DNA from: an uncultured archaeon
Lineage (GTDB): Archaea; EX4484-52; JAADEF01
Length of the DNA stretch: 64,000 bases
Assembly (NCBI GenBank): GCA_964407715.1
Contig: CAYOWP010000005.1
Coordinates: forward strand, 12,780-76,779
Direction: 5' to 3'
Shown here: in pieces, positions 1 through 43,096 of the stretch
Layout: the number at the start of each line of letters is the position of its first letter
How positions within the stretch are numbered: the first letter of the stretch is position 1
Notes under the pieces: generated by a model
Databases searched by the model: none
Seen by the model: only the letters and a program-made list of their open reading frames with translations
Told to the model about the DNA's origin: nothing
Translations under genes and position numbers: made by a program

Positions 1-1320
1 AGAAGGCCAGGTAGGTTTGATAGAGAGATTGAGATTGGTGTTCCTGACAGAAATGCAAGGAAGGAAATCTTACAAATAAAAACCAGAGGCATGCCTTTGG
101 ATGAAAGTGTTGATTTAGATAAGATAGCGGATTTGACTCATGGTTACACTGGTGCAGATATAGAGGCTTTGGTAAAGGAGGCTGCTTTGAGAGCTGTAAG
201 AAGAATCGTTCCAGATATAGCAAAATTTGAAGGTCGCAAGTTACCGACTGAGATTCTTAGGAAGTTAAAGGTGAGCATGGATGATTTCATGCATGCATAT
301 AAGATAGTGCATCCATCAGCTTTGAGAGAGGTGCTCATTCAAAAGCCAAAAGTTAAATGGGAGGATATAGGGGATCTTGAGGATGTAAAGCAACAGTTAA
401 GGGAAGTAGTAGAGTGGCCATTAAAGTATCCTAAGGACTTTGAGAAACTTGGCATTAAACCACCAAAAGGAATACTGCTTCATGGACCACCTGGCACAGG
501 AAAGACATTACTTGCTAAAGCTGTAGCTAACGAGGCTGAGGCAAATTTCATTGCTGTTAAAGGACCCGAGTTGATAAGTAAGTGGGTTGGAGAGAGCGAG
601 AAGCATATCCGTGAGATTTTCAGAAAGGCAAGACAAGCAGCTCCCACAATAATTTTCTTTGATGAAATTGACTCTATAGCAAGTGCGAGAGGCAGAGGTT
701 TAGATGCTGGTGTGACAGAGAGAATGGTTAATCAACTTCTTACTGAGTTGGATGGTATCGAGGAATTAGAGAGGGTAGTGGTTATTGCTGCAACAAACCG
801 CTTGGATATGGTTGATCCTGCTTTGTTGAGGCCAGGTAGATTTGATAGAGTCATTGAGATACCAATGCCCGATGAAAAAGCAAGATTAGAGATTTTCAAG
901 GTACATACAAGAAGCATGCCATTAGGCAAGGATGTATGGGAATTCATCAAAAAAATTGTAAAAGATAAAGAATCATTGAAGGACGAAATTTTATCAAAAT
1001 ATAAATTAAAAGATGAAGAAATAAAAGAGGAATTTAATAAAATAAATAGTGAAGATGATGTAAATGAGTTCATAAAGAAATATAAAGACAAGATAAAAGA
1101 TAAGAAATCTTTCGAAAAAGATGTATTACAGATGTTAGAATTATTAGAATATACAATGGAAGGATTTACTGGTGCTGATATTGAAGCAGTAGTGAAAGAG
1201 GCAGGAATGGAAGCTCTGAGAGAGGCAAGAAAGAAAGGAGAGGAAATAGATAAAGTTAAAAAAGAGCACTTTATGAGAGCTATTAAGAAGGTAAAAGAGA
1301 CTATTAATAGAAGAAAATGA
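1..1320 (+). CDS. cdc48: CDC48/VAT AAA+ ATPase, 5'-truncated by the window edge (D1 end plus D2 domain)
   Basis: Frame is open from base 1 ([16 protein letters not shown]). D2 Walker A GPPGTGKT, Walker [21 protein letters not shown]. Confidence 0.97.
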
Positions 1321-1429
1321 GAATTTAAATTTTTACTTTTTTTAATTTTATTATTTTGGTGTTATTTCGTTTTTGATATATTTAAAATCTAATATAAGTA
1401 TTGATGTATACATACATAATAATTCCGGT

Positions 1430-1723
1430 TTAATTATCGTCTTCTTCCTCTTTTGGTTCAAACCATCTTACTACTTTACCACATCTTAAACATTTTTTCT
1501 TCCATTCTCTTACATTGCTAGAATAAATGTTAATATAAGTAGGTTTTCCCCATTTATGTATTCCTATTCTGCATAAAAAAGGTTTATTTTCGTTAGATAA
1601 TGGAGATATTTCAAACAAATTTATCAAAGAAATTATAGAACGGGATAAAGAGGATAAGATGCCATTTAAAATAGGAATAAAAATTAAAATAGTTATTATA
1701 ATGCAAACAATCTTATAACACAT
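1430..1723 (-). CDS. Hypothetical membrane-anchored zinc-ribbon protein, DUF1660-like (virus/prophage-type)
   Basis: N-terminal TM helix; LCRIGIHKW...KKCLRCGK motif. Confidence 0.5.
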   Translation of the reverse strand: MCYKIVCIIITILIFIPILNGILSSLSRSIISLINLFEISPLSNENKPFLCRIGIHKWGKPTYINIYSSNVREWKKKCLRCGKVVRWFEPKEEEDDN

Positions 1724-1815
1724 AAAATTATAAATGAATCAAAAGAGAAATATACGCTTATAACTAAAATTAGAAATATAATTAAGATGCTACTGATATA
1801 ATATACAATATATAT

Positions 1816-2151
1816 TCAAAGGGAGAATCCACCATATACTATTTCTTTTATATAGTATACTAATTTGAGTGATACTTCGTCTTCTCTTTTATTAATATAT
1901 TCAAAAATCATAGAAAAAATGATATATGAAATAAAGAATATAAGAGATATTATGATGATATCTTTTTTATAAAAGATATTTTCTACAAAAAATGATAAAA
2001 CATTGTATATAATCTTGATCAGGTTTATATTTTTTACATTTTCTATATTTGTAGATTGAATGGCTGTTGAAATATATCCGTTATAATATATATAGGATAA
2101 TATAGTAAGTAATATTAATCTTGTATTCTCATTTTTAAAGTTATTTATCAT
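1816..2151 (-). CDS. Hypothetical membrane protein, very AT-rich
   Basis: 111-aa ORF with hydrophobic segments; no recognised motif. Confidence 0.45.
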   Translation of the reverse strand: MINNFKNENTRLILLTILSYIYYNGYISTAIQSTNIENVKNINLIKIIYNVLSFFVENIFYKKDIIIISLIFFISYIIFSMIFEYINKREDEVSLKLVYYIKEIVYGGFSL

Positions 2152-2232
2152 AAAAATTAATTAAATATTACATTAAAAATTTAAAAATTTTTAACTGTAT
2201 AAATAAACAAATTATTTAAATAAAAACAACCT

Positions 2233-2394
2233 GATGGCTTTACCGGTGCTGATATCGAGGCAGTATGTAGAGAGGCTGCCATGAATGCATTAAGAGAAGC
2301 AAGGGCTAAGGGCAAAGAGGTGAAGGAAGTTAAGAAGAAGCATTTCGAAGAGGCAATTAAAAAAGTTAAAGAGAGTGTGGAGAGGAGGAAGTGA
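2233..2394 (+). repeat. Copy B of the cdc48 3' end ([53 protein letters not shown])
   Basis: Translates collinearly with cdc48 1159-1320; no start codon (in-frame stop at 2221). Confidence 0.95.
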
Positions 2395-2426
2395 TGTTAA
2401 ATAATTTTATAATTTTTACCTATGAG

Positions 2427-2455
2427 TAGGGAAATATTTTTAAATTATTTCCCTG
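2427..2455. promoter_or_regulatory. Inverted repeat AGGGAAATA-N9-TATTTCCCT straddling a TATA-like TTTTTAAA; putative operator/promoter of the ATPase
   Basis: 9-bp perfect arms about 15 bp upstream of ATG 2471; second copy at 6281-6311. Confidence 0.55.
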
Positions 2456-2470
2456 TATAATATACTACAT

Positions 2471-3730
2471 ATGGAGGTATATAAGCTAAGAGAGGTCGTA
2501 AAAGATTATTATGAAAAAGAAATTCCGGAAATTATAGAACGTGAAATAAAGGTATCTTTACCTGAGAATATAGATAGATGTGTTGTTCTAATTGGTCCGC
2601 GAAGAGCAGGAAAAACATATTATTTATTTCAACAAATGAGTAAATTAAAAAAGAATGAAAGAATATACATAAATTTTGAAGATTTCAGGTTTGAAAACGA
2701 AAATTATAAAGTGATTTTAGAGATAGTTGATCAATTTTTTCAATTAACGGGTTGTGAAAAGCCCATTTTATTTCTTGATGAGATTCAAAACATAAAAGAT
2801 TGGGAAATTGCGGTAAGAAATTTAATTGATCAAAGATATAAGATATTTATTACTGGTTCTAACTCTAAATTGTTAAGTAGAGAAATATCTACCTCATTAA
2901 GAGGAAGAAGTTTGAATTATTATATTTTTCCGTTTTCTTTTTTAGAATTTTTGAAAGTTAAAAAAATGAAAGTGAATAAATTTATTAGCAGTAAAGATAA
3001 AAATATGATATTGCGGTATTTGGAAGAATATCTAGAATTTGGAGGATATCCCGAGGTTGTATTAAGTGAAGAAAAAGAAAATAAGGAGAGAATCTTAAAA
3101 GAAATATGGGACTTAACAATCTTAAAAGATATAGTAGAAAGATACGGATTCAAGAATATAAAAATATTGAGGTTATTAATTAAAGCAATAATAGAATCAA
3201 AGGAATTGTCCATTCATAAATTCTATAATTTTTTGAAATCTATGAATATTCGAGTTAGTAAAAATACTCTTTATGAATACTTACAGGCATTAAGTGATGT
3301 GATGATAGTTTTTCCGGTTCATAACTATGCACCCACATATAAAGATGTAGAGAGAAGCATTCCTAAAATGTATTTGGTGGATAATGGGTTATATCTGCAT
3401 TCTAAAGACATAGGAAGAAAAATGGAAAATGTTGTGTTTGTGCATTTAAAAAGACAGGAGAATTATGCACCTTTGCAAGAAATATATTATTATAAAACGA
3501 AAAATAATAAAGAAATAGATTTTGTAGTCAAAAATGGCAATAATATTGAAATTATAGAGGTATGTTATGTATTTGATGAAGAACACAAAAGAAAATTAAT
3601 TTGTGCAATGGAAGAACTTAATTTAGAAGAATGTGTGTGTATTACTTGGGATGAGGAAGAAAAAATAGAAGAAAAAAACAAAAAAATACTTCTTATTCCT
3701 TTATGGAAGTGGCTAATCTCAGTAAAGTAA
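2471..3730 (+). CDS. AAA+ ATPase of the AAA_14/DUF4143 family
   Basis: GPRRAGKT Walker A, LFLDEIQ Walker B, TGSNS, GGYPE, KMYLVDNG, C-terminal EIDFV nuclease-like motif. Confidence 0.9.
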   Translation: MEVYKLREVVKDYYEKEIPEIIEREIKVSLPENIDRCVVLIGPRRAGKTYYLFQQMSKLKKNERIYINFEDFRFENENYKVILEIVDQFFQLTGCEKPILFLDEIQNIKDWEIAVRNLIDQRYKIFITGSNSKLLSREISTSLRGRSLNYYIFPFSFLEFLKVKKMKVNKFISSKDKNMILRYLEEYLEFGGYPEVVLSEEKENKERILKEIWDLTILKDIVERYGFKNIKILRLLIKAIIESKELSIHKFYNFLKSMNIRVSKNTLYEYLQALSDVMIVFPVHNYAPTYKDVERSIPKMYLVDNGLYLHSKDIGRKMENVVFVHLKRQENYAPLQEIYYYKTKNNKEIDFVVKNGNNIEIIEVCYVFDEEHKRKLICAMEELNLEECVCITWDEEEKIEEKNKKILLIPLWKWLISVK

Positions 3731-3745
3731 ATAAGAAATAAAAGT

Positions 3746-3808
3746 AAGAAGAAAACCTTCGAGGAGGCTATTAAAAAGATTAAGGAGAGTGTGGAGAGGA
3801 GGAAGTAA
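3746..3808 (+). repeat. Copy C of the cdc48 3' end (KKKTFEEAIKKIKESVERRK*)
   Basis: In-frame similarity to the cdc48 terminus and to copies B and F. Confidence 0.9.
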
Positions 3809-3818
3809 GGGTTTTACT

Positions 3819-4619
3819 TTACTCTGCGATTATTTTTTCTATTCTCTTCCTGTACTCAGGCACTTCTATGAATTCCTTTATTAATTCCTTAGCATCTTTT
3901 TTGTTCCGAGAACCCTTGCATTGCGTAGCACTATGCTTTTCAATGAAAATTGTTAAAACACAGTCTTCCTTCTTCACGCTGAAGTTTATGTTTTTCTCGA
4001 AATTTTTGAGGACAGCCTCGATATCTTCCTTTTCAAACGTTGAAGGGATTTCCGAACCGGAAAATTTTAAATTCTGCTCTCTGTAAGTCATAAAGATTCT
4101 CAGTTCGTTTTCATCAAGAATCTTTTTCGCTTCACTAACCTCCATCTTTAGAGGTGTAGGATCAACAACCAGCGCCTTTCCTCCATATCTCAACACTCTG
4201 TAAATTTCCTCGAAGAAAAAATCTGGACATCTTAGTCCGTGCAAAACACCTGTTGATACAATATAATCGAAGTAATTTTCCTTAAACGGTAGGCGGTACG
4301 CATCTGCTGCCACAAATCTCGCTTTATCTTTCGTGTATTTTTTAAAATACTTCGAAAATTCGAGCGTGCAATCTATTCCAATGTACGTACCCTCGACTAA
4401 TCTCGAAATTTCATAAAGCAGCATTCCGTGAGCGGTTCCTATGTCAAGTAATTTTATTTCCCTCTTCGGATTTTTTCCAATATCTTCTGCAATCCTTTTT
4501 GCTATTCTACGATAAAAATCCTTTCCCGCGTACTCACATATTTTCACATATGTTTTGACGTGCTCTTCGGGAATTCTTTCCCATGATTTCATATCAAGAT
4601 AATATCCATTAAATTTCAT
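3819..4619 (-). CDS. Class I SAM-dependent methyltransferase
   Basis: LLDIGTAHG motif I, GIDC, ADAYRLPF, FDYIVS. Confidence 0.85.
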   Translation of the reverse strand: MKFNGYYLDMKSWERIPEEHVKTYVKICEYAGKDFYRRIAKRIAEDIGKNPKREIKLLDIGTAHGMLLYEISRLVEGTYIGIDCTLEFSKYFKKYTKDKARFVAADAYRLPFKENYFDYIVSTGVLHGLRCPDFFFEEIYRVLRYGGKALVVDPTPLKMEVSEAKKILDENELRIFMTYREQNLKFSGSEIPSTFEKEDIEAVLKNFEKNINFSVKKEDCVLTIFIEKHSATQCKGSRNKKDAKELIKEFIEVPEYRKRIEKIIAE

Positions 4620-4734
4620 GTATTATCTCCTCTAAAGAATACTCCTCTCCTTTTTCCATATTTCTTAAAATATTATTGATTTTTTCTTTTATTTTCTCCA
4701 TATCTTCTTTAATTGCGTATTGGATCTTAGGCAT
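4609..4734 (-). CDS. Small antitoxin-like protein MPKIQYAIKEDMEKIKEKINNILRNMEKGEEYSLEEIIHEI (not in the ORF track)
   Basis: Manual translation; N-terminus homologous to ORF 5345-5512; stop overlaps the MTase start. Confidence 0.6.
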   Translation of the reverse strand: MPKIQYAIKEDMEKIKEKINNILRNMEKGEEYSLEEIIHEI

Positions 4735-4805
4735 GATTTCACTTTATTTATACATCCTATACATACTTTAAACTATTTATACTTTAAAAAGCTTTGAGAA
4801 ATAAA

Positions 4806-4964
4806 GGCATTGTCCAATAATCTTCTATTTGTTAAGCGGAAAAGCAGCCTTTTAAAGAAGTGCATGAGAGAAAGCTAACCTTGTAGAGCCAATGCGATTA
4901 CCGCTATAAGTGCTATTTGCGCGTTAAATTTCCGCTTAACAATAAGGAATTATCGGACAATGCC
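4806..4964. mobile_element. MITE-like element 1
   Basis: TIR GGCATTGTCCAATAAT / ATTATCGGACAATGCC; near-perfect 9-bp flanking repeat AGAAATAAA/AGAGATAAA. Confidence 0.85.
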
Positions 4965-4970
4965 AGAGAT

Positions 4971-5030
4971 AAAAAGCATTTTGATGAAGCAATTAAAAAA
5001 ATTAAGGGGAGTATGAAGAATGTGAGGTAA
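4971..5030 (+). repeat. Copy D of the cdc48 3' end (KKHFDEAIKKIKGSMKNVR*)
   Basis: In-frame similarity to the cdc48 terminus. Confidence 0.8.
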
Positions 5031-5343
5031 TATTAAACAAACCCTTTAATTTTTCTTTTATTTCTTCAATTTTGGTAGAGGTTAATTTTCCTATTGTTTT
5101 ATAGATTAAACTTTTTTCAACAGTATATATAGAATGAAGATGTATAAAACTTTCTTTTTTTATTTTACCTTCTTTCAAACTACTTTGGTTAATTTTAATC
5201 TCATATTTACTTATTTGACTTTTAGAACTTATTTTACACACAATAACATCCTTCTTAGAAACATCTGCTAATATCATTACAGGTCTTAATTTATAAGATT
5301 CATATGAAGAATATATTAACTTCAAAACAACTATGTCTCCCAT
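5002..5343 (-). CDS. PemK/MazF-family toxin (likely start 5343 rather than 5397)
   Basis: GDIVV...KLRPVMIL...VIVCKISS...ESFIHLHSIYTVEK pattern; stop lies inside cdc48 copy D. Confidence 0.85.
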   Translation of the reverse strand: MGDIVVLKLIYSSYESYKLRPVMILADVSKKDVIVCKISSKSQISKYEIKINQSSLKEGKIKKESFIHLHSIYTVEKSLIYKTIGKLTSTKIEEIKEKLKGLFNITSHSSYSP

Positions 5344-5344
5344 G

Positions 5345-5512
5345 TTATATCTCAAATAGTTCCTCTGCATCTTCCCCTTCCTTATATAATCTTTCATGAG
5401 AATATCTTTTCAAAGATGACGATTCTAAAAATTCTATTTTCTCTAATACTTCTTTTATTAAATATTTTATTTCCTCTATATCCTCTTTAGTTGCATACCT
5501 TACAGAAGGCAT
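5345..5512 (-). CDS. Putative antitoxin MPSVRYATKEDIEEIKYLIKEVLEKIEFLESSSLKRYSHERLYKEGEDAEELFEI (not in the ORF track)
   Basis: Manual translation; SD-like GGTGGTGA; ends 1 nt before the toxin ATG. Confidence 0.7.
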   Translation of the reverse strand: MPSVRYATKEDIEEIKYLIKEVLEKIEFLESSSLKRYSHERLYKEGEDAEELFEI

Positions 5513-5569
5513 TATCACCACCTTATAAGAATATAATAACTTTGAACTTTAAAAATGTTGTTTGATAAT

Positions 5570-5629
5570 AAGAGACACTTTAGACGAGTAATTAAGAAGG
5601 GTAATGAGAGTATGAAGAAAAGGAAGTAA
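5570..5629 (+). repeat. Copy E of the cdc48 3' end, the most degenerate (KRHFRRVIKKGNESMKKRK*)
   Basis: Same length and position relative to the stop codon as copies C and D; HF..IKK..ES...RK*. Confidence 0.7.
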
Positions 5630-5681
5630 TTTTCTTAATATTTTAAAATCTGAAAGATTATGGTATATTTATATACCTATA

Positions 5682-5915
5682 ATGTGTGGTGATTGCATGT
5701 ATATAACCTATGACAAAGAAAACGATGTACTTTACATAAAGTACAAAGAGGGAAAAATAATGGAAAGTGAAGAAATAAGTGAAGGCATTATTGTTGATTA
5801 TGATGAAAAAGGAGAAATTATAGGAATAGAGATTTTAAACTTTAAAGAGAGAAGTGATTTTAACTTAAAAGAATTTATTTTGTCTGAGGGTAAGAACATC
5901 TCAGTGATTCTATGA
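5682..5915 (+). CDS. DUF2283 protein (putative antitoxin; likely start 5697)
   Basis: ITYDKENDVLYI...GIIVDYDEKGEIIGIEIL. Confidence 0.85.
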   Translation: MCGDCMYITYDKENDVLYIKYKEGKIMESEEISEGIIVDYDEKGEIIGIEILNFKERSDFNLKEFILSEGKNISVIL

Positions 5916-6136
5916 AAATAATATTTACTAAGCATGCTTTGGAAAGAATGAAGGAAAGAGATATAGGATTTAAGGAAGTTAAGAGTACTTTGAAAAATCC
6001 TGATAAAATTGCTAATAATAGATATATCAAGAAAATAGATTCTTATGTGTTGATTGTAGTAGTTAATGAGGAGAGTAAAGGAGTCATCAAGATTGTTACA
6101 GTATTCAAAAGTTCTAAAATAAGTAAGTATTTATAG
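5912..6136 (+). CDS. DUF4258 protein (putative RelE-fold toxin)
   Basis: IIFTKHALERMKERDI...KIVTVF; 4-nt overlap with the DUF2283 gene. Confidence 0.85.
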   Translation: MKIIFTKHALERMKERDIGFKEVKSTLKNPDKIANNRYIKKIDSYVLIVVVNEESKGVIKIVTVFKSSKISKYL

Positions 6137-6144
6137 TAAGATTT

Positions 6145-6249
6145 TTAAGAGAAGCCAGGGCTAAAGGTAAGGAAGTGGAGGAAGTCAAGAAAAAACACTT
6201 TGAAGAAGCAATTAAGAAGATTAAGGAGAGTGTGGAGAGGAGGAAGTGA
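6145..6249 (+). repeat. Copy F of the cdc48 3' end (LREARAKGKEVEEVKKKHFEEAIKKIKESVERRK*), followed by a duplicate of 2395-2460
   Basis: In-frame similarity; 6250-6313 is nearly identical to 2395-2458. Confidence 0.95.
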
Positions 6250-6394
6250 TATTAAATAATTTTATAATTTTTACCTATAAATAGGGAAATATTTTTAAAT
6301 TATTTCCCTATATATTGACAGTAAAGATAAGAGAAAAAAATTTGGAGATTATTCAGAAGTTGTGTCAAATAAAAGAACACAAAAAAGCCAATCA

Positions 6395-6467
6395 TAGCAG
6401 TTAACCCCTTGAATATGGCTATACTTTCCGTTAACCAAATTTCTCAAAATATATTATTGGGCAATAC
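6395..6467 (-). mobile_element. Truncated MITE remnant (one TIR plus one arm)
   Basis: Reverse complement matches 29496-29570 (TIR-ATATATTTTGAGAAATT-GGTTAACGG..ATAGCC.TATTCAA.GGGTTAA). Confidence 0.75.
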
Positions 6468-6553
6468 ATGGAAATGACTAATTATGTGTTAAGAAAATAT
6501 ATATTTTTGATGTAATTATAATATAATATTTATCCAAATTATGTTCAAAGCAG

Positions 6554-6808
6554 GTGATGAATGTGACAGATGAAGAAGCAAACATGGCAATGAGTAAAAG
6601 CATTACTATTACGACATTGAGTTTTTTGATAAACATACCTAGAGCAGAACTTGAAGAGAAGTTAAAGAACAACGAGTACATAGATGAGTTTGAGATAGAG
6701 GAATTGGATGATAAAGATATTAGGAAAGATGTATTTATCATTTTTAAAAATCCCGTGGATATCAGATATCTTCCAAATGTAATTAGCGAGATTCTTGGTT
6801 ATCGATAA
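6554..6808 (+). CDS. Hypothetical protein
   Basis: SD-like GGTG; directly upstream of AMP phosphorylase. Confidence 0.6.
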   Translation: MMNVTDEEANMAMSKSITITTLSFLINIPRAELEEKLKNNEYIDEFEIEELDDKDIRKDVFIIFKNPVDIRYLPNVISEILGYR

Positions 6809-6825
6809 ATTAAGGGGATGAAATA

Positions 6826-8328
6826 ATGGTATTAGAAGCAAGAGTGAAAAATATAAATTTAAATACTTTTTATGAGTGTGCCATAATCTCAAAAAGTCTT
6901 GCAAGAAAATTAAATGTGAGAGAGGGAGACAGGATAAAGGTCAGGAAGAGATTTTCTGAGAAGGTATATATTGTGGATATAGACAATGATAATGAGATTG
7001 TAAAGGATGATCAAATAGGTATACCTAAAAAGTACTCATCTTTTAAGGATAATGATGTTGTGATGTTGAGAGTCACCAATCCCCCAAAATCAAAAGAAAT
7101 AATAAAAAAGAAAATTGAGGGGTATGAACTTTCTAAGAGAGATATTAGATTGCTTATAAGTGATGTATATCATAGGAGATTGTCTAATATTGAGATAGCA
7201 TCATATCTTACAGCTGTTAAAATAAATGGAATGACAATAAAGGAGATTTATTATGTGACTCAAGAGATGTATAAATATGGAGATATCATCTCATGGCCCT
7301 GGCATTGGAAAATTGTGGACAAACATTCCATAGGAGGTATTCCTGGCAATAGAACAACGCCAATTGTAGTTAGCATAGTTGCAGCAGCAGGATTAAAAAT
7401 TCCAAAAACATCAAGCAGAAGCATTACATCACCTGCTGGTACGGCAGATACTATAGAGGTATTGGCGGATGTATGCTTCTCTATTGATGAAATAAAGAGA
7501 ATTGTTAGCAAAACTAATGGATGTATGGTATGGGGCGGGGCTTTAGATTTGGCTCCAGTTGATGATATATTTATTCAAATAGAGAAACCTTTGAATTTGG
7601 ATCCTGAAGGACAAGTAATTGCATCTATACTCTCAAAGAAGAAATCTGTAGGAAGCAAATATGTGCTTATAGACATACCTTACGGAGATGAGGCAAAGAT
7701 AGAGGAATTTAATAAAGCAAAAATTTTGGCAGATAAGTTCAAGATAGTAGGTGCATATTTGGGTATGAGAGTTGAAAGCATAATTACAAAAGGATCATCT
7801 CCTATAGGAAGCGGAGTAGGGCCTGTATTGGAGATGATAGATGTACTTAATGTACTTTATGGAAAGGGGTCTCGTGATTTAAGAGAAAAATCTTTAGAAA
7901 TGGCGGGGATATTGTTAAATATTGCAGGCAAAGGAGATTACAACACTGCAAAATACATATTAGAGAGTGGAAAAGCATTCAAAAAATTTAAGGAGATAAT
8001 AGAAGCGCAAAATGGTAGCGTTAATAAATCTCTTATAGATATGCTTGGGAGACATACTTACGAGGTCAAGGCATCTCAGGATGGGATAGTAGAGAAGATA
8101 AGCAATTCCTCTATTGCTGAGATTGCTAAAAGGGCAGGTGCTCCATCATTCAAAGGTGCTGGCGTATGGTTGTTCAAGAGAGTTGGTGATAAAGTTAAAA
8201 AAGGGGAGACATTATTTAAGATATATGCTGAAAGCGAGAGAAAATTAGATTATGCGCTTGATGTGGTGAAAGAGAACCCACCATTTTTGCTAAGCAAAAA
8301 GGATAGTTTTATTGTGATGGAGAGGTGA
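6826..8328 (+). CDS. deoA: AMP phosphorylase (thymidine phosphorylase family)
   Basis: N-terminal double-psi-barrel-like extension, DKHSIGGIPGN, KTSSRSITSPAGTAD. Confidence 0.93.
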   Translation: MVLEARVKNINLNTFYECAIISKSLARKLNVREGDRIKVRKRFSEKVYIVDIDNDNEIVKDDQIGIPKKYSSFKDNDVVMLRVTNPPKSKEIIKKKIEGYELSKRDIRLLISDVYHRRLSNIEIASYLTAVKINGMTIKEIYYVTQEMYKYGDIISWPWHWKIVDKHSIGGIPGNRTTPIVVSIVAAAGLKIPKTSSRSITSPAGTADTIEVLADVCFSIDEIKRIVSKTNGCMVWGGALDLAPVDDIFIQIEKPLNLDPEGQVIASILSKKKSVGSKYVLIDIPYGDEAKIEEFNKAKILADKFKIVGAYLGMRVESIITKGSSPIGSGVGPVLEMIDVLNVLYGKGSRDLREKSLEMAGILLNIAGKGDYNTAKYILESGKAFKKFKEIIEAQNGSVNKSLIDMLGRHTYEVKASQDGIVEKISNSSIAEIAKRAGAPSFKGAGVWLFKRVGDKVKKGETLFKIYAESERKLDYALDVVKENPPFLLSKKDSFIVMER

Positions 8329-8334
8329 TAAAAC

Positions 8335-8859
8335 ATGGAGCTATGGAAAAGCATAGAACCTCTTGCTGGGAAGGATGTTGTAAATGTAATTATTGAGATA
8401 TCAAAGGGCAGTAAAAACAAATATGAGTTGGATAAGAAAACAGGATTAATAAAGCTCGATAGAGTTTTATATAGTGCTATGCACTATCCTTTAGATTATG
8501 GTCTCATACCAAAGACATATTGTGAGGATGGGGATCCATTGGACATTTTGGTAATCTCAACGGAATCTCTTCTTCCAGGCGTATTGGTAGAGGCAAGAGT
8601 AATAGGAGCTATGAGGATGATAGACAGTGGGGAACAGGATGATAAGCTTATAGGAGTAGTGGCAGAGGATCCACGATTGAATCATATAAATGACATAGAA
8701 GATGTTGGTGAGCATACATTAAAAGAAATAAGGCATTTCTTTGAGCATTATAAGGATCTTCAGGGTAAAAAGGTTGAGGTTAAAGAATTTCTCGGCAAAC
8801 AACAGGCTTTAAAAATACTTAAGGATAGCATTTCCCTTTATAATCAAAAATTTAAATAA
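8335..8859 (+). CDS. ppa: Inorganic pyrophosphatase (family I)
   Basis: DRVLYS..HYP..YG.IP.T..EDGDPLD, DDKLI. Confidence 0.97.
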   Translation: MELWKSIEPLAGKDVVNVIIEISKGSKNKYELDKKTGLIKLDRVLYSAMHYPLDYGLIPKTYCEDGDPLDILVISTESLLPGVLVEARVIGAMRMIDSGEQDDKLIGVVAEDPRLNHINDIEDVGEHTLKEIRHFFEHYKDLQGKKVEVKEFLGKQQALKILKDSISLYNQKFK

Positions 8860-8893
8860 CTTCTTTTTAAATTTTAGATGCAAAAATTGTTCT

Positions 8894-10714
8894 ATGGAAA
8901 AGGACAAGGAGATATATGTTCCGGATACCTCAGCATTGATAAATCATGTGGTTAGCAGATTAATAGAGGAGGGAAGTATAAAGGAAGGTGTTATAATCAT
9001 ACCTAAATTTGTCCTTTCTGAGTTGGAAAATCAAGCAAATAAAGGCAGAGATATAGGATATTTGGGATTAGAGGAGATAAAGAAGCTAAAGCAATTTGAA
9101 AAAGAAGGAAAAGGCATTGAGGTTACTTTTGAGGGAAGATTGCCTACTCTTGAGGAGATCCAACTCTCAAAATCCGGTAGGATAGATTTTCTTATTAGGG
9201 AGATTGCATATGAAAAGGGAGCAACGCTGATAACCTCTGATTATGTTCAGGCAAAGGTAGCTGAAGCAATGGCTATGAACGTGATATATATTGAAAAGAA
9301 AATACCTCTCGAGAAATTGCCTTTTGAAAGATTTTTTGATGAAAACACAACATCTGTGCATTTAAAGGAAGGATGTAAACCTATGGCAAAAAAAGGAAGA
9401 CCAGGAAACATGAGATTGGTTGAGATTGGTGATGAGGTATTAACAAGAGAATATCTTGAAAAACTAATTTCTGATATCTTGGATTATGTTAGGATAGATG
9501 ATGAGAGTCATGTTGAGATAAGCAAATTTGATGCTACTGTAGTACAGCTAAGAGAATACCGCATAGCCATTACAAGACCACATTTCTCAGATGGCATAGA
9601 AGTAACCATTGTCAAACCTACAATTAAATTGACATTAGATGACTATAAATTGAAGGACAAGTTGATAGAGAGATTAAGAACAAAGGCAGAGGGCATATTA
9701 ATAGCTGGTCCTCCTGGTCATGGAAAAACAACATTTGCTCAGGCATTGGCAGAGTATTATCTCAGCTTGAACAGAGTTGTTAAGACAATGGAGCACCCAC
9801 GTGATCTAAATCTTCCAAAGGAAATAACCCAATATGCTCCGCTTGATGGAAAGATGGAGAATACAGCAGATATCCTTTTGCTTGTGAGACCTGACAATGT
9901 GATATATGATGAGGTTAGGAAAACTGCAGATTTCAAAATATTTGCGGATATGAGAATGGCAGGTATTGGGATGATAGGAGTGGTACATGCCTCGAATCCC
10001 ATAGAGGCAGTGCAGAGGTTTATAGGAAGGGTTGATCTTGGACTTATACCTCAGATTGTGGATACCGTGATATTTATCCACTCAGGTGAGATCAAGAGAG
10101 TATATACTCTCTCATTAACTGTAAGAACGCCCACAGGGATGATTGATGATGATCTCGCGCGTCCTATTATAGAGGTTAGGGATTTCGAGACAAATGAGTT
10201 GAAATATGAGATTTACACATATGGAGAGCAAACCGTTGTGATGCCAGTAGAGAATGTGCCAAATGAGAAGCAGGAATCTGCTATAGAGAATCTGGCAAAG
10301 GAGATGATATTGAAAGAGGTTAGAAAATTTGCTAAGAATCCAGAGATTTCTATCATAGATAAAAACAGGGTTGTTGTTAAAGTGGATGAGAAAGATATTG
10401 CTAAACTAATAGGCAGGAAAGGCAAAACAATTAGCAATATAGAGGAGAAGTTAGGCTTGAAGATAAATGTTGAACCCAAAACTGGCACTCTTAAAGATGA
10501 AATAGATTATGATTTAGAAGAGAAGGGAGCTTACATAGTGATATATGTGGATGATAAATTAAAATGTAAAACAGTCGATATATACAGTGATGGTGAGTAC
10601 TTGCTCTCACCAACTGTAAGTAAAAAAGGATATATAAAGATAAAGAAGAAATCTGAGCTGGGAAAGAAACTTCTCAGTGCATGGCTCAAAGGCACATTAA
10701 AACTTTATGCTTAA
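8894..10714 (+). CDS. PINA: PIN domain-VirB11-type ATPase-KH domain protein
   Basis: N-terminal PIN (VPDTS), GPPGHGKTT, KH motif LIGRKG. Confidence 0.92.
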   Translation: MEKDKEIYVPDTSALINHVVSRLIEEGSIKEGVIIIPKFVLSELENQANKGRDIGYLGLEEIKKLKQFEKEGKGIEVTFEGRLPTLEEIQLSKSGRIDFLIREIAYEKGATLITSDYVQAKVAEAMAMNVIYIEKKIPLEKLPFERFFDENTTSVHLKEGCKPMAKKGRPGNMRLVEIGDEVLTREYLEKLISDILDYVRIDDESHVEISKFDATVVQLREYRIAITRPHFSDGIEVTIVKPTIKLTLDDYKLKDKLIERLRTKAEGILIAGPPGHGKTTFAQALAEYYLSLNRVVKTMEHPRDLNLPKEITQYAPLDGKMENTADILLLVRPDNVIYDEVRKTADFKIFADMRMAGIGMIGVVHASNPIEAVQRFIGRVDLGLIPQIVDTVIFIHSGEIKRVYTLSLTVRTPTGMIDDDLARPIIEVRDFETNELKYEIYTYGEQTVVMPVENVPNEKQESAIENLAKEMILKEVRKFAKNPEISIIDKNRVVVKVDEKDIAKLIGRKGKTISNIEEKLGLKINVEPKTGTLKDEIDYDLEEKGAYIVIYVDDKLKCKTVDIYSDGEYLLSPTVSKKGYIKIKKKSELGKKLLSAWLKGTLKLYA

Positions 10715-10745
10715 TTTTAGAGTTTTTAGGTAGTTTGTAGATTTT

Positions 10746-11083
10746 GGCATTGTCCAATAATTTTTGATGAGGATTTGTTAACGAGAAAATTCGTTCTTAC
10801 AATCGCATTAGCTCTACAAAGTTTGCTGCTCTAATGGGCTTCTTTAAGAGGTTATCTTTTAACAAGGAATTATACCCAGTCAATGAGCAGCAGTAAAGCA
10901 GCTAACCTTTTGAAGAGGTTAGCATGCTACAAAACCTGTAGTAATAGCGATTTCTTCCAATTAACAAAATCATTTAAAATGGTTAACGGGAAGCATAGCC
11001 CTATTCAAAGGGTTAACTGCTCTTATGCACTTCTTTGAGAGGTACGTTTCCGCTTAACAAATAGAGAATTATTGGACAATGCT
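10746..11083. mobile_element. MITE-like element 2, long composite form with three internal modules
   Basis: TIR GGCATTGTCCAATAAT / ATTATTGGACAATGCT; no clear target duplication. Confidence 0.85.
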
Positions 11084-11138
11084 CACATCTTTGGTAATAG
11101 TCAAAATTTTTTATTTTTTGAAATACCATAATCTAAAT

Positions 11139-11558
11139 ATGGTGGAGCGATTTGTATTGAGATATCATTTAAAAGCGCGGAAAGGTTGGGTGTGTATAGA
11201 TAGAGATATAGAAGATCTCCTTAATAAGATAAAGACCACAAATAAAGAGAGCGGTATTATCCACATATTTGCTAAGGGATCAACAGGATCTGTTATATTG
11301 ATAGAGGATGATCCAAATCTCCTACATGATTTGTTTGATATACTTGATAAGATAGCACCTTTTGATAGAGATTACAAACATCACATGACATGGCATGATG
11401 ATAATGGTGCAAGCCATATAAGGGCAACTCTCTTGGGTCAAGAAATCTCGATACCATATGAGGAGGGAAGATTACTCAAAGGCACATGGCAAAATATCAT
11501 TCTCATAAATCATGATACAAGAGATAGAGAAAGGGAAATAATAGTGACGATATTGTAG
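11139..11558 (+). CDS. yjbQ: YjbQ/UPF0047 family protein (ORF-track start at 11079 lies in the MITE TIR)
   Basis: YKHH..WHDDNGASHIRATLLG, L..GTWQ.I. Confidence 0.9.
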   Translation: MVERFVLRYHLKARKGWVCIDRDIEDLLNKIKTTNKESGIIHIFAKGSTGSVILIEDDPNLLHDLFDILDKIAPFDRDYKHHMTWHDDNGASHIRATLLGQEISIPYEEGRLLKGTWQNIILINHDTRDREREIIVTIL

Positions 11559-11560
11559 TG

Positions 11561-12208
11561 TCATTGAGTGATTTCTTTTAATGCCCTTACATCTACGATC
11601 CAATATTTTTGCGATGAGATGATGATTGGATTGATTTCCATTTCTAAAAGATTTTCTTCCTTGTATATCTTATACAATTTGAGTATAACATCAGCTAATT
11701 TATCTATGTCATACTTTATATCGCGGAATTTGTTTTTAGCCAAGAAAAATCCATACTTTGTTGATAATATTAAGTCTTTGATGCCTTCTTTATTTAGCGG
11801 AAGAAGCCTAAATGCAACGTCTTTTTCTAATTCGATATCTATCCCGCCTTTTCCAAAAGATACCACATTACCATATAGATGATCCTTCTTAAATGAAATG
11901 TAGAACTCGCGACCTTTAACTTCTTTCTCTATATATACCTCTTCAGCCTTAGTGATTATCTCTTTATATTTATTTATTAAATCCTCAAGAGAATATACAT
12001 TAAGATAAATGAGCCCATGTTCTGTTTTATGCGAATATTTTCGTGAGAAACCTTTTATAACAAAGGGTGGCGTATTGTTATCAAAAAAGTTTTTTATGTC
12101 CTCTATTGAGGATATTTTCTTTCGTGGCACAATATTTAATCCCTCTTCCAAAAATCTATCTTCCAAATCATTCAATGAGAGAAGTTTTACCAGCACCATT
12201 GTTTTCAC
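11561..12208 (-). CDS. Stand-alone ATP-grasp domain of the acetate-CoA ligase (ADP-forming) type
   Basis: G.GGIDIELEKDVAFRLLP, EMEINPII, VDVR. Confidence 0.75.
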   Translation of the reverse strand: MKTMVLVKLLSLNDLEDRFLEEGLNIVPRKKISSIEDIKNFFDNNTPPFVIKGFSRKYSHKTEHGLIYLNVYSLEDLINKYKEIITKAEEVYIEKEVKGREFYISFKKDHLYGNVVSFGKGGIDIELEKDVAFRLLPLNKEGIKDLILSTKYGFFLAKNKFRDIKYDIDKLADVILKLYKIYKEENLLEMEINPIIISSQKYWIVDVRALKEITQ

Positions 12209-12210
12209 TC

Positions 12211-12642
12211 CTACATATTTAACTTTCTTTGAATTTGTCTTAACATGTCTATGATAAGATCATTTTGAGTTTTTATTGTTCGTAATTCATATATAACATC
12301 TTCCAATGATGGATTCTGGATGGTTTCTTTTTCAGCATTCTTCGTATTCTCTTCAAATGAAAAGGGATATAATGCTTCAGGGATATTTTTCTCAGGATTC
12401 TCAAATTTTTCTGGAGGATTTTCATTAAATGGAGGAGGATAAAATAATCCTTTTTCCTGTTCTGGAGAATAAGGTTGTTTTTGATTAAGATTACTGACAT
12501 CTTTAGGATAACTACTCTCATTTCTTTCTTCATTCGGATTAATATCTTCATTAATGTTTTTTCCCATTAAAAAGTTTTTACTTGCCTCTAACATCAATTC
12601 GCTTTGCGTTTTTTTCTTTTTTAAGAAATCAAAAACACCCAT
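12211..12642 (-). CDS. Hypothetical protein (Pro/Glu-rich linker, C-terminal coiled coil)
   Basis: ORF with MGVFDFLKKK start and C-terminal helix. Confidence 0.65.
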   Translation of the reverse strand: MGVFDFLKKKKTQSELMLEASKNFLMGKNINEDINPNEERNESSYPKDVSNLNQKQPYSPEQEKGLFYPPPFNENPPEKFENPEKNIPEALYPFSFEENTKNAEKETIQNPSLEDVIYELRTIKTQNDLIIDMLRQIQRKLNM

Positions 12643-12697
12643 AAAAATATATATTCAACCTTGATACTATATATAATTTGTATAAAGGTGAGAGATT

Positions 12698-12946
12698 ATG
12701 AGAAAATTTAAGGGACTAAGCGCAGCTATTGCTGTTGTCATTACCATTGTTGTGTTATTAATAATTGCATTAGCGGTTATTGGAGTTTCAACAGGTGCTA
12801 TTGGTAAGCTTGGAGGTGTAATCTCACATACTCCTGGGGAAGAGGAGATATCATCAACAGTATGTTCATCTCAGATTACTCAAGAGCTTTGTGAGAAATT
12901 TGAGAATTGTGAATGGGTTGATGGTAAATGTGTTCCAAGAGAATAG
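12698..12946 (+). CDS. Small pilin-like protein with class III signal peptide and Cys-rich tip
   Basis: KFKG/LSAAIAVVITIVVLLII; SD GGTGA. Confidence 0.7.
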   Translation: MRKFKGLSAAIAVVITIVVLLIIALAVIGVSTGAIGKLGGVISHTPGEEEISSTVCSSQITQELCEKFENCEWVDGKCVPRE

Positions 12947-12962
12947 CATACTCTAAACTTGA

Positions 12963-13097
12963 TATGACTTTAACTCCAAGAAATCTCGGTTTAGCAGGAG
13001 GTATTCTTTGGGGCTTATGCTTATTTATAACAACTTTGATTTCCATGTTTACAGGATATGCTATGGAATTTTTAAGCATGAAATCTTTTGATAATTT
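12963..13097 (+). pseudogene. Truncated small membrane protein gene, cut off by repeat array 1
   Basis: MTLTPRNLGLAGGILWGLCLFITTLISMFTGYAMEFL then reads into repeat sequence. Confidence 0.55.
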
Positions 13098-13709
13098 GGT
13101 TAAGAGAATGTGTAGCCTGATAAGAGGCATCTTGAAGCATCTAACCTTAAATTTCTTTAATGAGAACTGGTTAATGGAAGGGATACCTTCTCGATGAGCC
13201 ATAGGAGAGCAGCTAACCTTAAGTGGGTAGCATACTCAAAGAGCTTTGATAATAGCACCATCTTCCCGTTAACCATATTATCAAAAAATTGTTGAGGAGA
13301 GGCATGCATCTTTAAAAGAGCATGTTACAGCAGCTAATCTTTTGAGCGGTTTTGAAGCAGAGCTATCCTTTTTCAAGGCGAGTTACAATGCTGTAAAGCC
13401 TGGGAGAGGGCGATTCTTTTCGCGTTAACTAAAAAATAAAAAATGGTTAACGGGAAGGATAACCTATTCATTCAGCATATTAGAGCAGCTAACCTTTTTG
13501 AAAGGTTAGCATGCTGCAAGACCTTGGCGAAAGTGATATCTTCCCGTTAACCAAATTTTTATTAAATCTTTTATTGGTTAACGGGAGACATACCTTATCA
13601 AAACACGTATTACAGCAGCTAACCTTCGAAAGGGGTTAGTGAGCAGCTAACCTTTTGAGCGGTTAGCATGCTGCAATGTGCTTTGGAAAGCGATTCTCTC
13701 GCGTTAACC
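13098..13709 (+). repeat. Tandem array 1 of hairpin units (about 5 units, 2 partial)
   Basis: Full units at 13169-13274, 13445-13552 and 13576-13709: GGTTAACGGGA...GAGCAGCTAACC-loop-GGTTAGCATGCTG...TCCCGTTAACC. Confidence 0.92.
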
Positions 13710-13787
13710 ATGACCTTAAAAATAAATCAGGTTCATGAGAGGGAGGTTAATTATTTAAATAATTCATTTTCAATAAAATATAAACTT

Positions 13788-38800: not shown

Positions 38801-39242
38801 GATATATCACCTCATTTATGTTTATTTTTTTTATTAAATCAGTTATCTCCCTACTTTTGTGCGTTAAACTAACATCTACAATGAATCTTCCATATAATGC
38901 ATCTCTCCCAATTATCATAGGCAATGTAAGATTTGATCTATCTGCTATTGTGATGGTATCTAATTCCATCTTTATACCTTTGATCTCAACTATAGCTTTT
39001 ACTGTTGGCCTTATTATTCTATCCGTAATTATAGTTTTTGATCTTATTATTCTTGATCCTGTTATCATAAGGTTCAGTTTTCCTGCAATTTTTAGATCCA
39101 AACTAGAGGATGTAGCTCCAGTGTCTATGAGAGCATAAAGAGAGGCTGATTTTTGATTTATGGGGTTGTAGATTTTCACCTTTTCTATTAATCCAAGGAT
39201 TTCCTTTTTATCCCTCACTATATACCACCCTACTAACACCAT
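38784..39242 (-). CDS. RimK-associated putative aspartic protease
   Basis: ALIDTGATSSSLD...DRS.LT.PMIIGRDAL..RFIVD. Confidence 0.85.
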   Translation of the reverse strand: MVLVGWYIVRDKKEILGLIEKVKIYNPINQKSASLYALIDTGATSSSLDLKIAGKLNLMITGSRIIRSKTIITDRIIRPTVKAIVEIKGIKMELDTITIADRSNLTLPMIIGRDALYGRFIVDVSLTHKSREITDLIKKININEVIYHEQQS

Positions 39243-41796: not shown

Positions 41797-43096
41797 AAAG
41801 TTTTTGATTTTTGAAGTTTTCTAATAGCATATCTGCACACTTTTTAATAACCCTTCTATAATAAGTATTTTTTGTTTCATCTTCGCCCTTTGATTCTCCA
41901 AGAATATCTATCAATATCTTTGATACAGCATGCGGATCAAACTCATATTTTTTTTCTATATTTTGGAAAATCTTTTTTATCAATTCTTTTTCTATTTCTG
42001 CAATGTTTTTTTCTGTTTCAAGTTTTATTTCAGGCTCATACATTTTGGATTGTAATTTAAATGTATTCCTCTTTACAATATATGGATTCTTTTCATTGTA
42101 GAGTTTTTCTATCTCTTTGAAATTTATATTTGAAATTAGACCTTCAACAACTCCATAGAACTTTAAAAGCACAATTTTATTTGTAATTTCCTTTTTACTT
42201 AGCAATTCTGCAGTTTTATTATACACTTGTTGAGGTGTTAGTCCATTACAATTTATATCTATTGATTCAACTTCATATAGCTTAAATGTTTCGTGATGAA
42301 CATGCGTTATCCATCCATTATTTGCTTTTTCAATTTCTACATATACAAAATAGGATGTTCCCTTTAAATCTTCAAGTTCTGAGAAATTTGTTGGATAAAC
42401 AGGACCGGGATACACAACATAACTTTTCTTTCCTAAGATATCGCTTATGTTTTTAATGATTGGCAAATGAATGTGCCCACCAGCATAGTAATCAAATCCC
42501 CTTGGGATATTGTCTATAGAGATATTATCAGAAAATTTTGAAGATGTTGGAAGGATCTCATTAATACCTATATGGAACTGAAAGATTTTATAATGCTCCC
42601 TATACTTTCCTATGTCCTTTAAATCTTTTATCTTTTTATAATATTCCTTTTCTAACCCTCTTTTTCTTCCTAACATGCCATATATTACCACCTTCTCATT
42701 ATACTCTGTTGGAAGAAGAGAGATTTTTCCATCCTGTATCTCTGCCTTTGATGTAACTGTGAGTAAATCAGCATCTTCCAATACATAAAGAAAAGAATTT
42801 TCATCAGAACTTAAATCATGAGATCCTGGTATTACAAATACTTTGATATTGCATGACTTAAGCTTTTGAAGCTGTTTTGTTAAAAATCTTATGGCATTAA
42901 GAGAGGGTATGCTTACATTAAATATATCGCCAGATATCAATAGAAAATTTATCTTTCTATCAATGCATTCATCAACTATTCTTTTGAATGCCAAGAAGTT
43001 TAATCTTTTAAGCTCTTTTTCTCTCCATACATCCAAATGTAAGTCAGCGATATGAATGAACCTAATTTTTTCATTTTGTGTTTGAGAATCCATCAT
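41786..43096 (-). CDS. mre11: Mre11 nuclease
   Basis: HIADLHLD, SGDIF, PGSHD, GGHIH. Confidence 0.95.
   Translation of the reverse strand: MMDSQTQNEKIRFIHIADLHLDVWREKELKRLNFLAFKRIVDECIDRKINFLLISGDIFNVSIPSLNAIRFLTKQLQKLKSCNIKVFVIPGSHDLSSDENSFLYVLEDADLLTVTSKAEIQDGKISLLPTEYNEKVVIYGMLGRKRGLEKEYYKKIKDLKDIGKYREHYKIFQFHIGINEILPTSSKFSDNISIDNIPRGFDYYAGGHIHLPIIKNISDILGKKSYVVYPGPVYPTNFSELEDLKGTSYFVYVEIEKANNGWITHVHHETFKLYEVESIDINCNGLTPQQVYNKTAELLSKKEITNKIVLLKFYGVVEGLISNINFKEIEKLYNEKNPYIVKRNTFKLQSKMYEPEIKLETEKNIAEIEKELIKKIFQNIEKKYEFDPHAVSKILIDILGESKGEDETKNTYYRRVIKKCADMLLENFKNQKLFEM

Follow-up and report, generated by a model that had tools for sequence, protein, structure and literature searches.

In an uncultured hydrothermal-vent archaeon represented by a metagenome-assembled genome (MAG), the 3' end of cdc48, an essential gene, anchors a row of small cassettes that are gained, lost and re-ordered between strains and related lineages. 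The locus lies in a 64-kb stretch of DNA with a GC content of 32% (contig CAYOWP010000005.1, positions 12 780–76 779 of the forward strand; hereafter the window, in which positions are counted from the first nucleotide). Downstream of the cdc48 stop codon, in the interval that leads to a deoA-like gene, the terminus of cdc48 recurs five times in copies without a start codon (orphan tails), and five modules, numbered outwards from cdc48, are interspersed with them. Recombination in or at the tails moves whole cassettes. With a probability somewhat better than even, the exchange of cassettes at the tails is driven by homology. An additive cassette array at this gene end had been proposed in an initial annotation from the sequence alone, and gain, loss and reordering are now seen both in relatives and in population contigs.

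The genes of the cassettes were assigned to families with Pfam and, for phage families, with PHROGs; tails were sought by tblastn against the 64-kb window and by repeat finding. The population data are contigs (Logan unitigs and others) of four vent metagenomes, with the runs X1, X2 and X3 (SRR7051321, SRR7051179 and siblings) among them, that were placed on the locus. Relatives were collected by searching a protein collection with the full Cdc48 and fetching the contigs (denoted by L numbers) of proteins 77–94% identical to it. In a search for homologues of TruD, the best matches with a named source were ~30–35% identical.

Orphan copies of the cdc48 end

The Cdc48 D1–D2 ATPase is encoded by the open reading frame (ORF) at positions 1–1320 of the plus strand, with the 5' end cut by the window; the full-length protein on the overlapping contig L085 has 774 amino acids. 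The five tails, all on the plus strand in the orientation of cdc48, comprise 20–57 codons and end in a stop in the cdc48 frame. Repeat finding, alignment and tblastn place them where the initial annotation had, except that copy 1 (2224–2394), correctly positioned, starts earlier than assumed, at about 2224, and thus has 57 codons. This copy ends in ESVERRK* and is the functional cdc48 end in the strain of X2. Copy 2 (3746–3808; 20–23 codons) reads KKKTFEEAIKKIKESVERRK* in the cdc48 frame. Copies 3 (4971–5030) and 4 (5570–5629), of 20 codons each, are decayed and read KKHFDEAIKKIKGSMKNVR and KRHFRRVIKKGNESMKKRK, respectively. Copy 5 (6145–6249; 34 codons) reads LREARAKGKEVEEVKKKHFEEAIKKIKESVERRK* and is followed by a palindrome (6254–6305), beyond which the conserved flank begins with an 81-amino-acid ORF and the deoA-like gene (6826–8328).

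The tails form a five-member direct-repeat family (at 2335, 3749, 4971, 5570 and 6190), and a 170-nt repeat pair (2290–2459 and 6145–6314) is 88% identical. With the native tail as the query, tblastn against the window returned 2233–2391 (E = 8e-22), 6145–6246 (E = 2e-12), 3737–3805 (E = 6e-5) and 5570–5626 (E = 5e-3); with copy 1 as the query, it returned 4971–5018 (E = 3e-4). No sixth copy was found by tblastn in the 64 kb, and cdc48 alone among the 70 window ORFs of at least 120 amino acids has orphan copies of its 3' end.

The array is not an assembly artefact, because two other contigs match it at 100% (L082, a k = 141 contig from the European Nucleotide Archive, over 1937–13730, spanning copies 1 to 5, and L085, a Joint Genome Institute contig, over 1–2015) and because the X1 unitigs cover the whole stretch with zero mismatches, bridging copies 1, 3 and 4 with both flanks. 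A concatenation of strain variants via the common tail might be suspected in a metagenome-assembled contig for which assemblies break near 1937–2015 and at tails, but it is exceedingly improbable given that the longest exact block among the tails is 22 nt, far shorter than k = 141, and that relatives from independent samples have the same architecture. Contigs of several independent samples (L089, L090, L092, L097 and L098) break off within 0–60 nt of the cdc48 stop or right at an orphan tail, as L097 and L098 do; this is the usual signature of strain variation. Since assemblers break at the cdc48 end and at the tails, such arrays are under-represented in MAGs; for annotation, cdc48 fragments without a start, like contigs that break at cdc48, should in these MAGs be taken as biology rather than noise.

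Two features of the gene end itself deserve mention. A 52-nt imperfect palindrome is located 3' of copies 1 (2399–2450) and 5 (6254–6305) only (DNA fold z = -3.2 and -1.6, respectively) and was not found behind cdc48 in the relatives; it may be the cdc48 terminator of the window lineage. In a 73-nt low-depth X2 contig, the end of copy 5 (6248) is joined to 6415, skipping the palindrome, and bases 6422–6457 are a high-depth repeat (118 in X1). Further, the Cdc48 of this clade (tail ends of L089–L100) stops directly after the D2 lid helix, at ...KESVERRK, whereas the more typical archaeal Cdc48 of L101 (337–3360) is about 25 residues longer, extending to ...ERFERLYT; the clade may have lost a C-terminal extension.

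Cassette turnover between strains and related lineages

A check for cassette turnover in relatives and population data, set beforehand, was positive. The most direct evidence comes from the X2 contig L084, a co-occurring strain that is 98–99% identical to the window. Its cdc48 ends in a tail of the copy 1 type (...ESVEKRK*) and is followed directly by the methyltransferase gene of module 3. Both modules 1 and 2 are missing: instead of 926–2223, 29 nt of canonical cdc48 sequence join 925 to 2224, and the second gap corresponds exactly to 2396–3809, i.e. 1414 nt, the spacing of the repeats. An X3 contig runs from the end of module 2 through the 5' part of copy 2 into the 3' end of the X2-type tail, with its stop and its methyltransferase allele (changes at 3798–3849); on the same allele background, then, one population has module 2 and another lacks it. 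The 3' end and stop of copy 2 co-vary with the methyltransferase allele in both X2 and X3. These junctions show that a tail goes with the upstream cassette in its 5' part and with the downstream one in its last ~12–25 nt and stop; the tails are mosaics, with recombination inside them. In X1, the word depth is ~20 over the flanking core genes, ~11 over modules 1–3 and ~16 over modules 4–5, a drop that fits heterogeneity within the sample.

The same organization is found in the relatives, where cassette-plus-tail units carry ParE, RelE, MNT/HEPN, DUF2283/DUF4258 and Abi genes and one or two orphan tails are present per contig (L091, L094, L096–L098, L100, L106 and L109). On L094–L099, L106 and L109, cdc48 is followed by ParE with its antitoxin and a 20-codon orphan tail, but the continuation varies: DUF2283 and an Abi-like gene on L094, a RelE-like toxin on L096, and a pair of 57- and 180-amino-acid ORFs on L106 and L109. 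L094, L096 and L106/L109 share an identical or near-identical cdc48 and ParE cassette and diverge inside or after the orphan tail; between L094 and L096, for example, there is no difference up to the start of the antitoxin, and the identity through the orphan tail is 98.4%. On L091, the order is cdc48, MNT/HEPN, a short tail remnant, antisense ParE with its antitoxin, and a 26-codon orphan tail. L100 has, after cdc48 and ~300 nt, a DUF2283/DUF4258 cassette, an orphan tail starting LREARAKG and a RelE-like cassette. On L089 and L090, cdc48 is the same but for 1 of its 2127 nt, and the contigs part 1 nt after the stop (TGA), L089 continuing into a cassette related to ORF1 of module 1, as does L093, and L090 into a RelE-like one. 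Cassette ranks differ accordingly: the ParE cassette is first on L094 and second on L091, and the DUF2283/DUF4258 cassette is fifth in the window, first on L100 and second on L094. The module 5 cassette with its tail (5664–6240) is 80% identical over 578 nt to L100 6949–7523, and the 5' boundary of copy 5, LREARAKG, is that of the L100 orphan tail. The methyltransferase was considered as an ancestral flank shared with L090, L096 and L100; this was rejected, the flank of those contigs being the RelE-like toxin cassette.

The array could also consist of static scars, relics of old insertions, with the differences between contigs reflecting different species and no turnover. The decay of copies 3 and 4 agrees with this, and the most distal position of the DUF2283 cassette in the window, with the same tail boundary on L100, fits vertical descent. 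This explanation is nevertheless very unlikely, given that the next cassette differs between strains whose cdc48 genes are identical or 1 nt apart, that the X2 strain lacks two modules at 98–99% identity, and that the X1 word depth falls to ~11 over modules 1–3 against ~20 in the flanks.

Beyond the clade, the tails were not detected. A scan of GTDB representatives with Cdc48 returned distant archaea only (at most 71% identity); searches with the window tails at their cdc48 loci found no orphan tails, and neither did a search of 80 distant archaeal cdc48 gene ends with their own tails, in which the 3 matches were tandem paralogues or chance. In metagenome contigs, the 24-nt tail core had 3 matches by chance, none of them in cdc48, and five scans of viral contigs (with the tail core, a degenerate tail, the module 1 tail, module 1 ORF1 and the ATPase) gave no match. 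Four of the distant archaea (L001, L035, L039 and L043; Hydrothermarchaeota and an unclassified MAG) have two full-length cdc48 genes in tandem.

Cassette content and the mode of exchange

The modules are compact units of 0.55–1.4 kb. Module 1 (926–2223) consists of a replacement cdc48 3' end (926–1320) and two small minus-strand membrane ORFs (1430–1723 and 1816–2151), for which no Pfam, PHROG or viral-contig match was found; the description of these ORFs as virus-like is therefore dropped. The other cargo calls of the initial annotation agree with Pfam. Module 2 (2395–3745, plus strand) contains the post-stop palindrome (2399–2450) and an AAA_14/DUF4143 ATPase (2471–3730). Module 3 (3809–4805, minus strand) encodes a SAM (S-adenosylmethionine) methyltransferase (3819–4619) and a 41-amino-acid antitoxin-like ORF (4609–4734), with a promoter-like box TTTAAAAAG next to the tail. 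Module 4 (5002–5569, minus strand) encodes a MazF/PemK toxin (5002–5397) and its 58-amino-acid partner antitoxin (5345–5521), with a putative promoter box TTTAAAAATGTTGTTTGAT. Module 5 (5630–6144, plus strand) carries DUF2283 (5682–5915) and DUF4258 (5912–6136). The layout of discrete cargo blocks, each closed by a tail, needs amendment at copy 3, which is separated from its cassette by a miniature inverted-repeat transposable element (MITE; 4806–4964) with ~36-nt terminal inverted repeats. The MITE, with a 9-bp target duplication (AGAAATAAA/AGAGATAAA at 4797–4805 and 4965–4973), sits exactly at the boundary between the promoter-like box of module 3 and the tail and splits the box from copy 3. 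It occurs in multiple copies in the window and reaches a word depth of 346 in X1, compared with ~11–20 for its neighbours, and is thus a multi-copy element. The boundary between copy 3 and module 4 cuts into the MazF/PemK ORF, since the last ~9 codons of this minus-strand ORF (5002–5030) are the tail read antisense, outside the Pfam PemK match (residues 20–120 of 131).

Modules 3 and 4, together with the ParE cassettes of L091 and L094–L098, constitute one cassette family with a common right end. All share a putative promoter box, TTTAAAAA(G/T).TTGTT, beside the tail, an identical codon at which the tail starts, and an antitoxin N-terminus M-P/S-S/P-VRYATKEDIE (in the module 3 ORF, MPKIQYAIKEDME), and they differ in the toxin partner, which is a methyltransferase, MazF or ParE. 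A repeat family, D4, also ties 4687–4721 of module 3 to the module 4 antitoxin.

With its serially arranged small cassettes and many toxin–antitoxin genes, the array resembles chromosomal integrons, and integrons have been reported in Archaea. The integron-like capture locus envisaged in the initial annotation might accordingly be a true integron, with IntI, attI and promoterless cassettes bounded by attC sites. The cassettes do not have this form: the five tails fold no better than shuffled sequences (z from -1.2 to +0.4) and so provide no attC-like hairpins, the repeat is the end of a coding gene, three of the five cassettes (modules 1, 3 and 4) are antisense to cdc48, with putative promoter boxes of their own among them, and no intI lies beside the array or among the tested window ORFs. 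Membership in this class has next to no probability.

How a tail can become orphaned is illustrated by module 1. The window and X2 are 98.6% identical over 507–935 and align poorly beyond 925, where the GC content of cdc48 falls from 40–43% (bases 1–925) to 25–30%. The segment 926–1320 carries an insertion of ~65 amino acids in the D2 lid that is absent from all close relatives (708–710 amino acids), and over the last 54 codons the replacement end differs from copy 1 at 58 of 162 nt. The cdc48 of the window is thus chimeric, native over 1–925 and foreign over 926–1320, and copy 1 was orphaned recently. Because X2 retains the canonical 29 nt missing from the window, the X2 form is ancestral, and insertion of module 1 replaced the working end and orphaned copy 1. 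A homologue of module 1 ORF1 also stands behind cdc48 on L093. An A-rich microhomology (AAAGAAAC/AAAAACAAC at ~2220–2224) leads into copy 1, and the 1.3 kb of the module contain no integrase. This shape fits one-sided homologous recombination combined with illegitimate joining, or a decayed element of the type of e14 at icd. For module 1, the X2 comparison supports the original suggestion that an insertion restores the Cdc48 C-terminus and pushes the old end downstream; the other modules bring their own tail copies, have been exchanged inside tails and have homologous units at other ranks elsewhere.

Within 926–1160, the ~65-amino-acid insertion is rich in Lys and Glu and contains a ~36-nt direct repeat (about 931–969 and 1057–1092, encoding DVWEFIKK and DVNEFIKK), with a third related segment further on. 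These repeats may be scars that earlier recombination left, in frame, in the donor.

The divergence of the tails is informative as to their past. Synonymous codon differences outnumber non-synonymous ones between copies 1 and 5 (14:2), 1 and 2 (5:2), and 2 and 5 (6:1), and copy 1 differs from the functional L093 tail by 26:2 over 54 codons, with 52 of 52 amino acids identical. It follows that copies 1, 2 and 5 diverged mainly inside selected cdc48 genes or through ongoing exchange with such genes. This confirms a companion remark in the initial annotation for three of the five copies; in the decayed copies 3 (4:9, compared with copy 1) and 4 (4:10), most differences are non-synonymous. The last cdc48 codons show no excess of synonymous-site conservation across the family. 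The orphan tail of L091 differs at 5 of 60 nt from the functional tails of L089 and L093 and at 13 of 60 from the functional tail of its own contig. A recombination break point in the L091 cdc48 was sought as an explanation for the foreign tail, and none was found, the gene being L094-like throughout. The tail has therefore moved between lineages. Mosaic and foreign tails would be the expected product of repeated crossing over inside tails. The 22-mer GAGAGTGTGGAGAGGAGGAAGT is common to copies 1, 2 and 5, and a 16-mer to the relatives, neither being present in the native tail or in copies 3 and 4; in two comparisons, the exchange zones map to positions -25 to -12 nt before the stop.

On these grounds, we propose that the cdc48–deoA interval would be a tandem accretion hotspot of small, self-contained toxin–antitoxin and defence cassettes, each carrying at its distal end a 5'-truncated cdc48 terminus (20–57 codons and stop) that would act as a portable recombination site. 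Crossing over between two tails on one chromosome would delete or excise the cassette or cassettes between them, and crossing over between the incoming tail of a related strain and a resident tail would insert or swap a cassette, the cdc48 end staying intact throughout. The crossovers would be homology-driven, of the host RadA/Mre11–Rad50 type, in the 22-mer GAGAGTGTGGAGAGGAGGAAGT, with no need for a dedicated integrase. We infer that orphan tails were seeded by events of the module 1 type: foreign DNA starting with a 3' part of cdc48 would recombine homologously inside the gene, after which an illegitimate join at an A-rich microhomology downstream would replace the working end and leave the old one as a start-less orphan.

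A homology-driven, integrase-free reaction is most likely because the tails vary in the extent of their homology (20, 23, 34 or 57 codons, and 0, 10 or 65 nt past the stop), no core is shared by all of them, recombination genes are present in the window, and no integrase was detected with Pfam and PHROGs in about 12 cassettes of the window and relatives, in the flanks, or among 20 window ORFs of 190–445 amino acids, in line with the absence of a visible integrase noted at the outset. As to the recombination genes, a Metallophos (Mre11-like) gene within 39208–43096 adjoins an 862-amino-acid ORF, with which it would pair if that ORF is Rad50-like, and a KaiC/Rad51-like ATPase gene is located at 56421–57317; part of the host recombination machinery is thus encoded in the window.

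Several observations weigh against homology as the driver. A fixed site-specific crossover would also place the exchange zones ~12–25 nt before the stop, although the presence of GAGAGTGTGGAGAGGAGGAAGT in the mapped zone means that homologous recombination would cross over there too. The 20-codon tail boundary, common to at least three cassette families, has the look of a defined site; most of this recurrence is explained by descent of the antitoxin–promoter–tail unit from one source. Identity to the other tails is only ~60–70% for the native tail and for copies 3 and 4, which makes them poor substrates for homologous recombination. No circular intermediate, direct event or back-joining contig was seen among the assembled contigs of the runs, and the integrase search covered the cassettes, flanks and tested window ORFs, with the remainder of the genome outside its scope.

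These points touch on site-specific accretion by a trans-acting recombinase, under which the cdc48 3' end would be the target of a family of integrative elements, with the tails as their att sites. The cassettes would then represent cis-mobilisable remnants or satellites devoid of an integrase, CIME-like or tycheposon-like (see below), and would be moved by an integrase whose gene lies at another place in the genome, on a virus or on a plasmid. Such an arrangement is possible, though on balance rather unlikely. It would account for the sharp limits of occupied and empty sites at the tails, for the attL/attR-like hybrid tails with the same exchange zone in two independent comparisons, for the recurrent 20-codon boundary and for the confinement of the tails to one clade (0 of the 80 distant cdc48 loci), and it has precedents in archaeal elements that enter protein genes in their 3'-distal parts and accumulate at a single site (PMC6563490; PMC8371274). 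It is harder to reconcile with the lack of an integrase in the dozen or so cassettes and the tested window ORFs, with the absence of tail and cargo from all viral contigs scanned, with the failure of the native tail, of copies 3 and 4 and of the family at large to conserve the putative core, and with tail homology of variable extent on either side. Homology-driven exchange thus remains the preferred explanation. Elsewhere in the window, a 402-amino-acid ORF (47086–48294) belongs to no Pfam family; in PHROGs, it matches repeat segments of phage tail fibres (E ~1e-13).

Comparison with known accretion and cassette systems

Few routes of gene exchange are recognised for tiny, genome-reduced vent archaea, and the cdc48 locus is a concrete one: defence and toxin–antitoxin modules are swapped at a fixed address behind an essential gene, across strains and across lineages whose Cdc48 proteins are ~77–94% identical. 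Among the closest parallels is tandem accretion at the 3' end of fda in Streptococcus thermophilus, where integrative elements of the ICESt1/ICESt3 family are stacked with cis-mobilisable elements (CIMEs), a term used in PMC5704250 and PMC7563491. Both loci involve the 3' end of a housekeeping protein gene with stacked units that are each bounded by a copy of the gene end; in both, some units lack an integrase and keep the flanking sites, and deletion or accretion occurs by recombination between the repeats. The fda units span tens of kb, with a short identical core and an element-encoded tyrosine integrase, whereas the cdc48 array, in an archaeal host, has units of 0.55–1.4 kb and diverged repeats of 60–170 nt, with no integrase seen.

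In the tycheposon islands of Prochlorococcus, new elements enter at the gene-proximal end, push older ones inward and leave partial transfer RNA (tRNA) copies (10.1101/2020.12.28.424599). The cdc48 array resembles these islands in this layout, with partial copies of the target gene scattered through it, in its defence or niche cargo and in strain heterogeneity that is greatest beside the anchor. The differences lie in the anchor, tRNA rather than a protein gene, and in the tyrosine or serine recombinases and the excision circles seen by polymerase chain reaction with tycheposons, neither recombinase nor circle having been seen here.

Module 1 can be compared with icd of Escherichia coli, the 3' end of which is replaced by prophage e14 and phage 21. 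As at icd, a diverged in-frame end supplied by the incoming DNA would become the expressed one, and the original is left start-less downstream; unlike e14, module 1 is only 1.3 kb long and has two tiny ORFs but no integrase, and at its right junction there is an A-rich microhomology in place of a repeat of the left junction. Dehalococcoides provides a further case, with several islands stacked at ssrA, each with its own serine recombinase and an identical ssrA 3'-end repeat of ~20 nt. Archaeal elements likewise integrate in 3'-distal parts of protein genes and re-use one site (PMC6563490), and the horizontally acquired islands of Dehalococcoides are described as integrating site-specifically at ssrA, the single-copy essential transfer-messenger RNA (tmRNA) gene, through a mechanism common in the genus (PMC3146451). 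The ssrA islands are possibly a parallel to the cdc48 array, differing in their RNA-gene anchor.

Chromosomal integrons share with the array an ordered row of small exchangeable cassettes rich in toxin–antitoxin genes, with one recombination site each; the array differs from them in that no IntI, attC hairpin or common promoter was found, the orientation is mixed and the site is coding sequence. In rhs and cdiA arrays, start-less fragments of the upstream gene are also repeated downstream, where they can recombine with the full gene and carry new toxic C-termini. The cdc48 orphans, in contrast, represent the conserved end itself, and their cargo consists of independent genes rather than alternative C-terminal domains with immunity genes.

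New with respect to all these systems are the cdc48 anchor, the deep-branching clade of vent archaea, units of integron-like size, the toxin–antitoxin and defence cargo, long diverged coding repeats and the absence of an integrase from about a dozen cassettes. A bolder view, held tentatively, is that this is a new archaeal platform for cassette capture, in which the last ~60 nt of an essential protein gene might serve both as the docking site and as the cassette-borne site, equivalent to attI and attC, and minimal toxin–antitoxin and defence cassettes might circulate among deep-branching vent lineages without an element-encoded integrase, through host recombination or a clade-specific recombinase. 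The locus makes it testable whether short homology alone can sustain an integron-like cassette economy. By analogy, with direct repeats of the target 3' end around the units and precise occupied and empty sites both present, the cdc48 locus appears to work like tandem accretion at a gene end, and this model, based on tRNA, tmRNA and bacterial genes, would be extended by it to an archaeal protein gene, to integron-sized cassettes and to a case where no integrase is visible.

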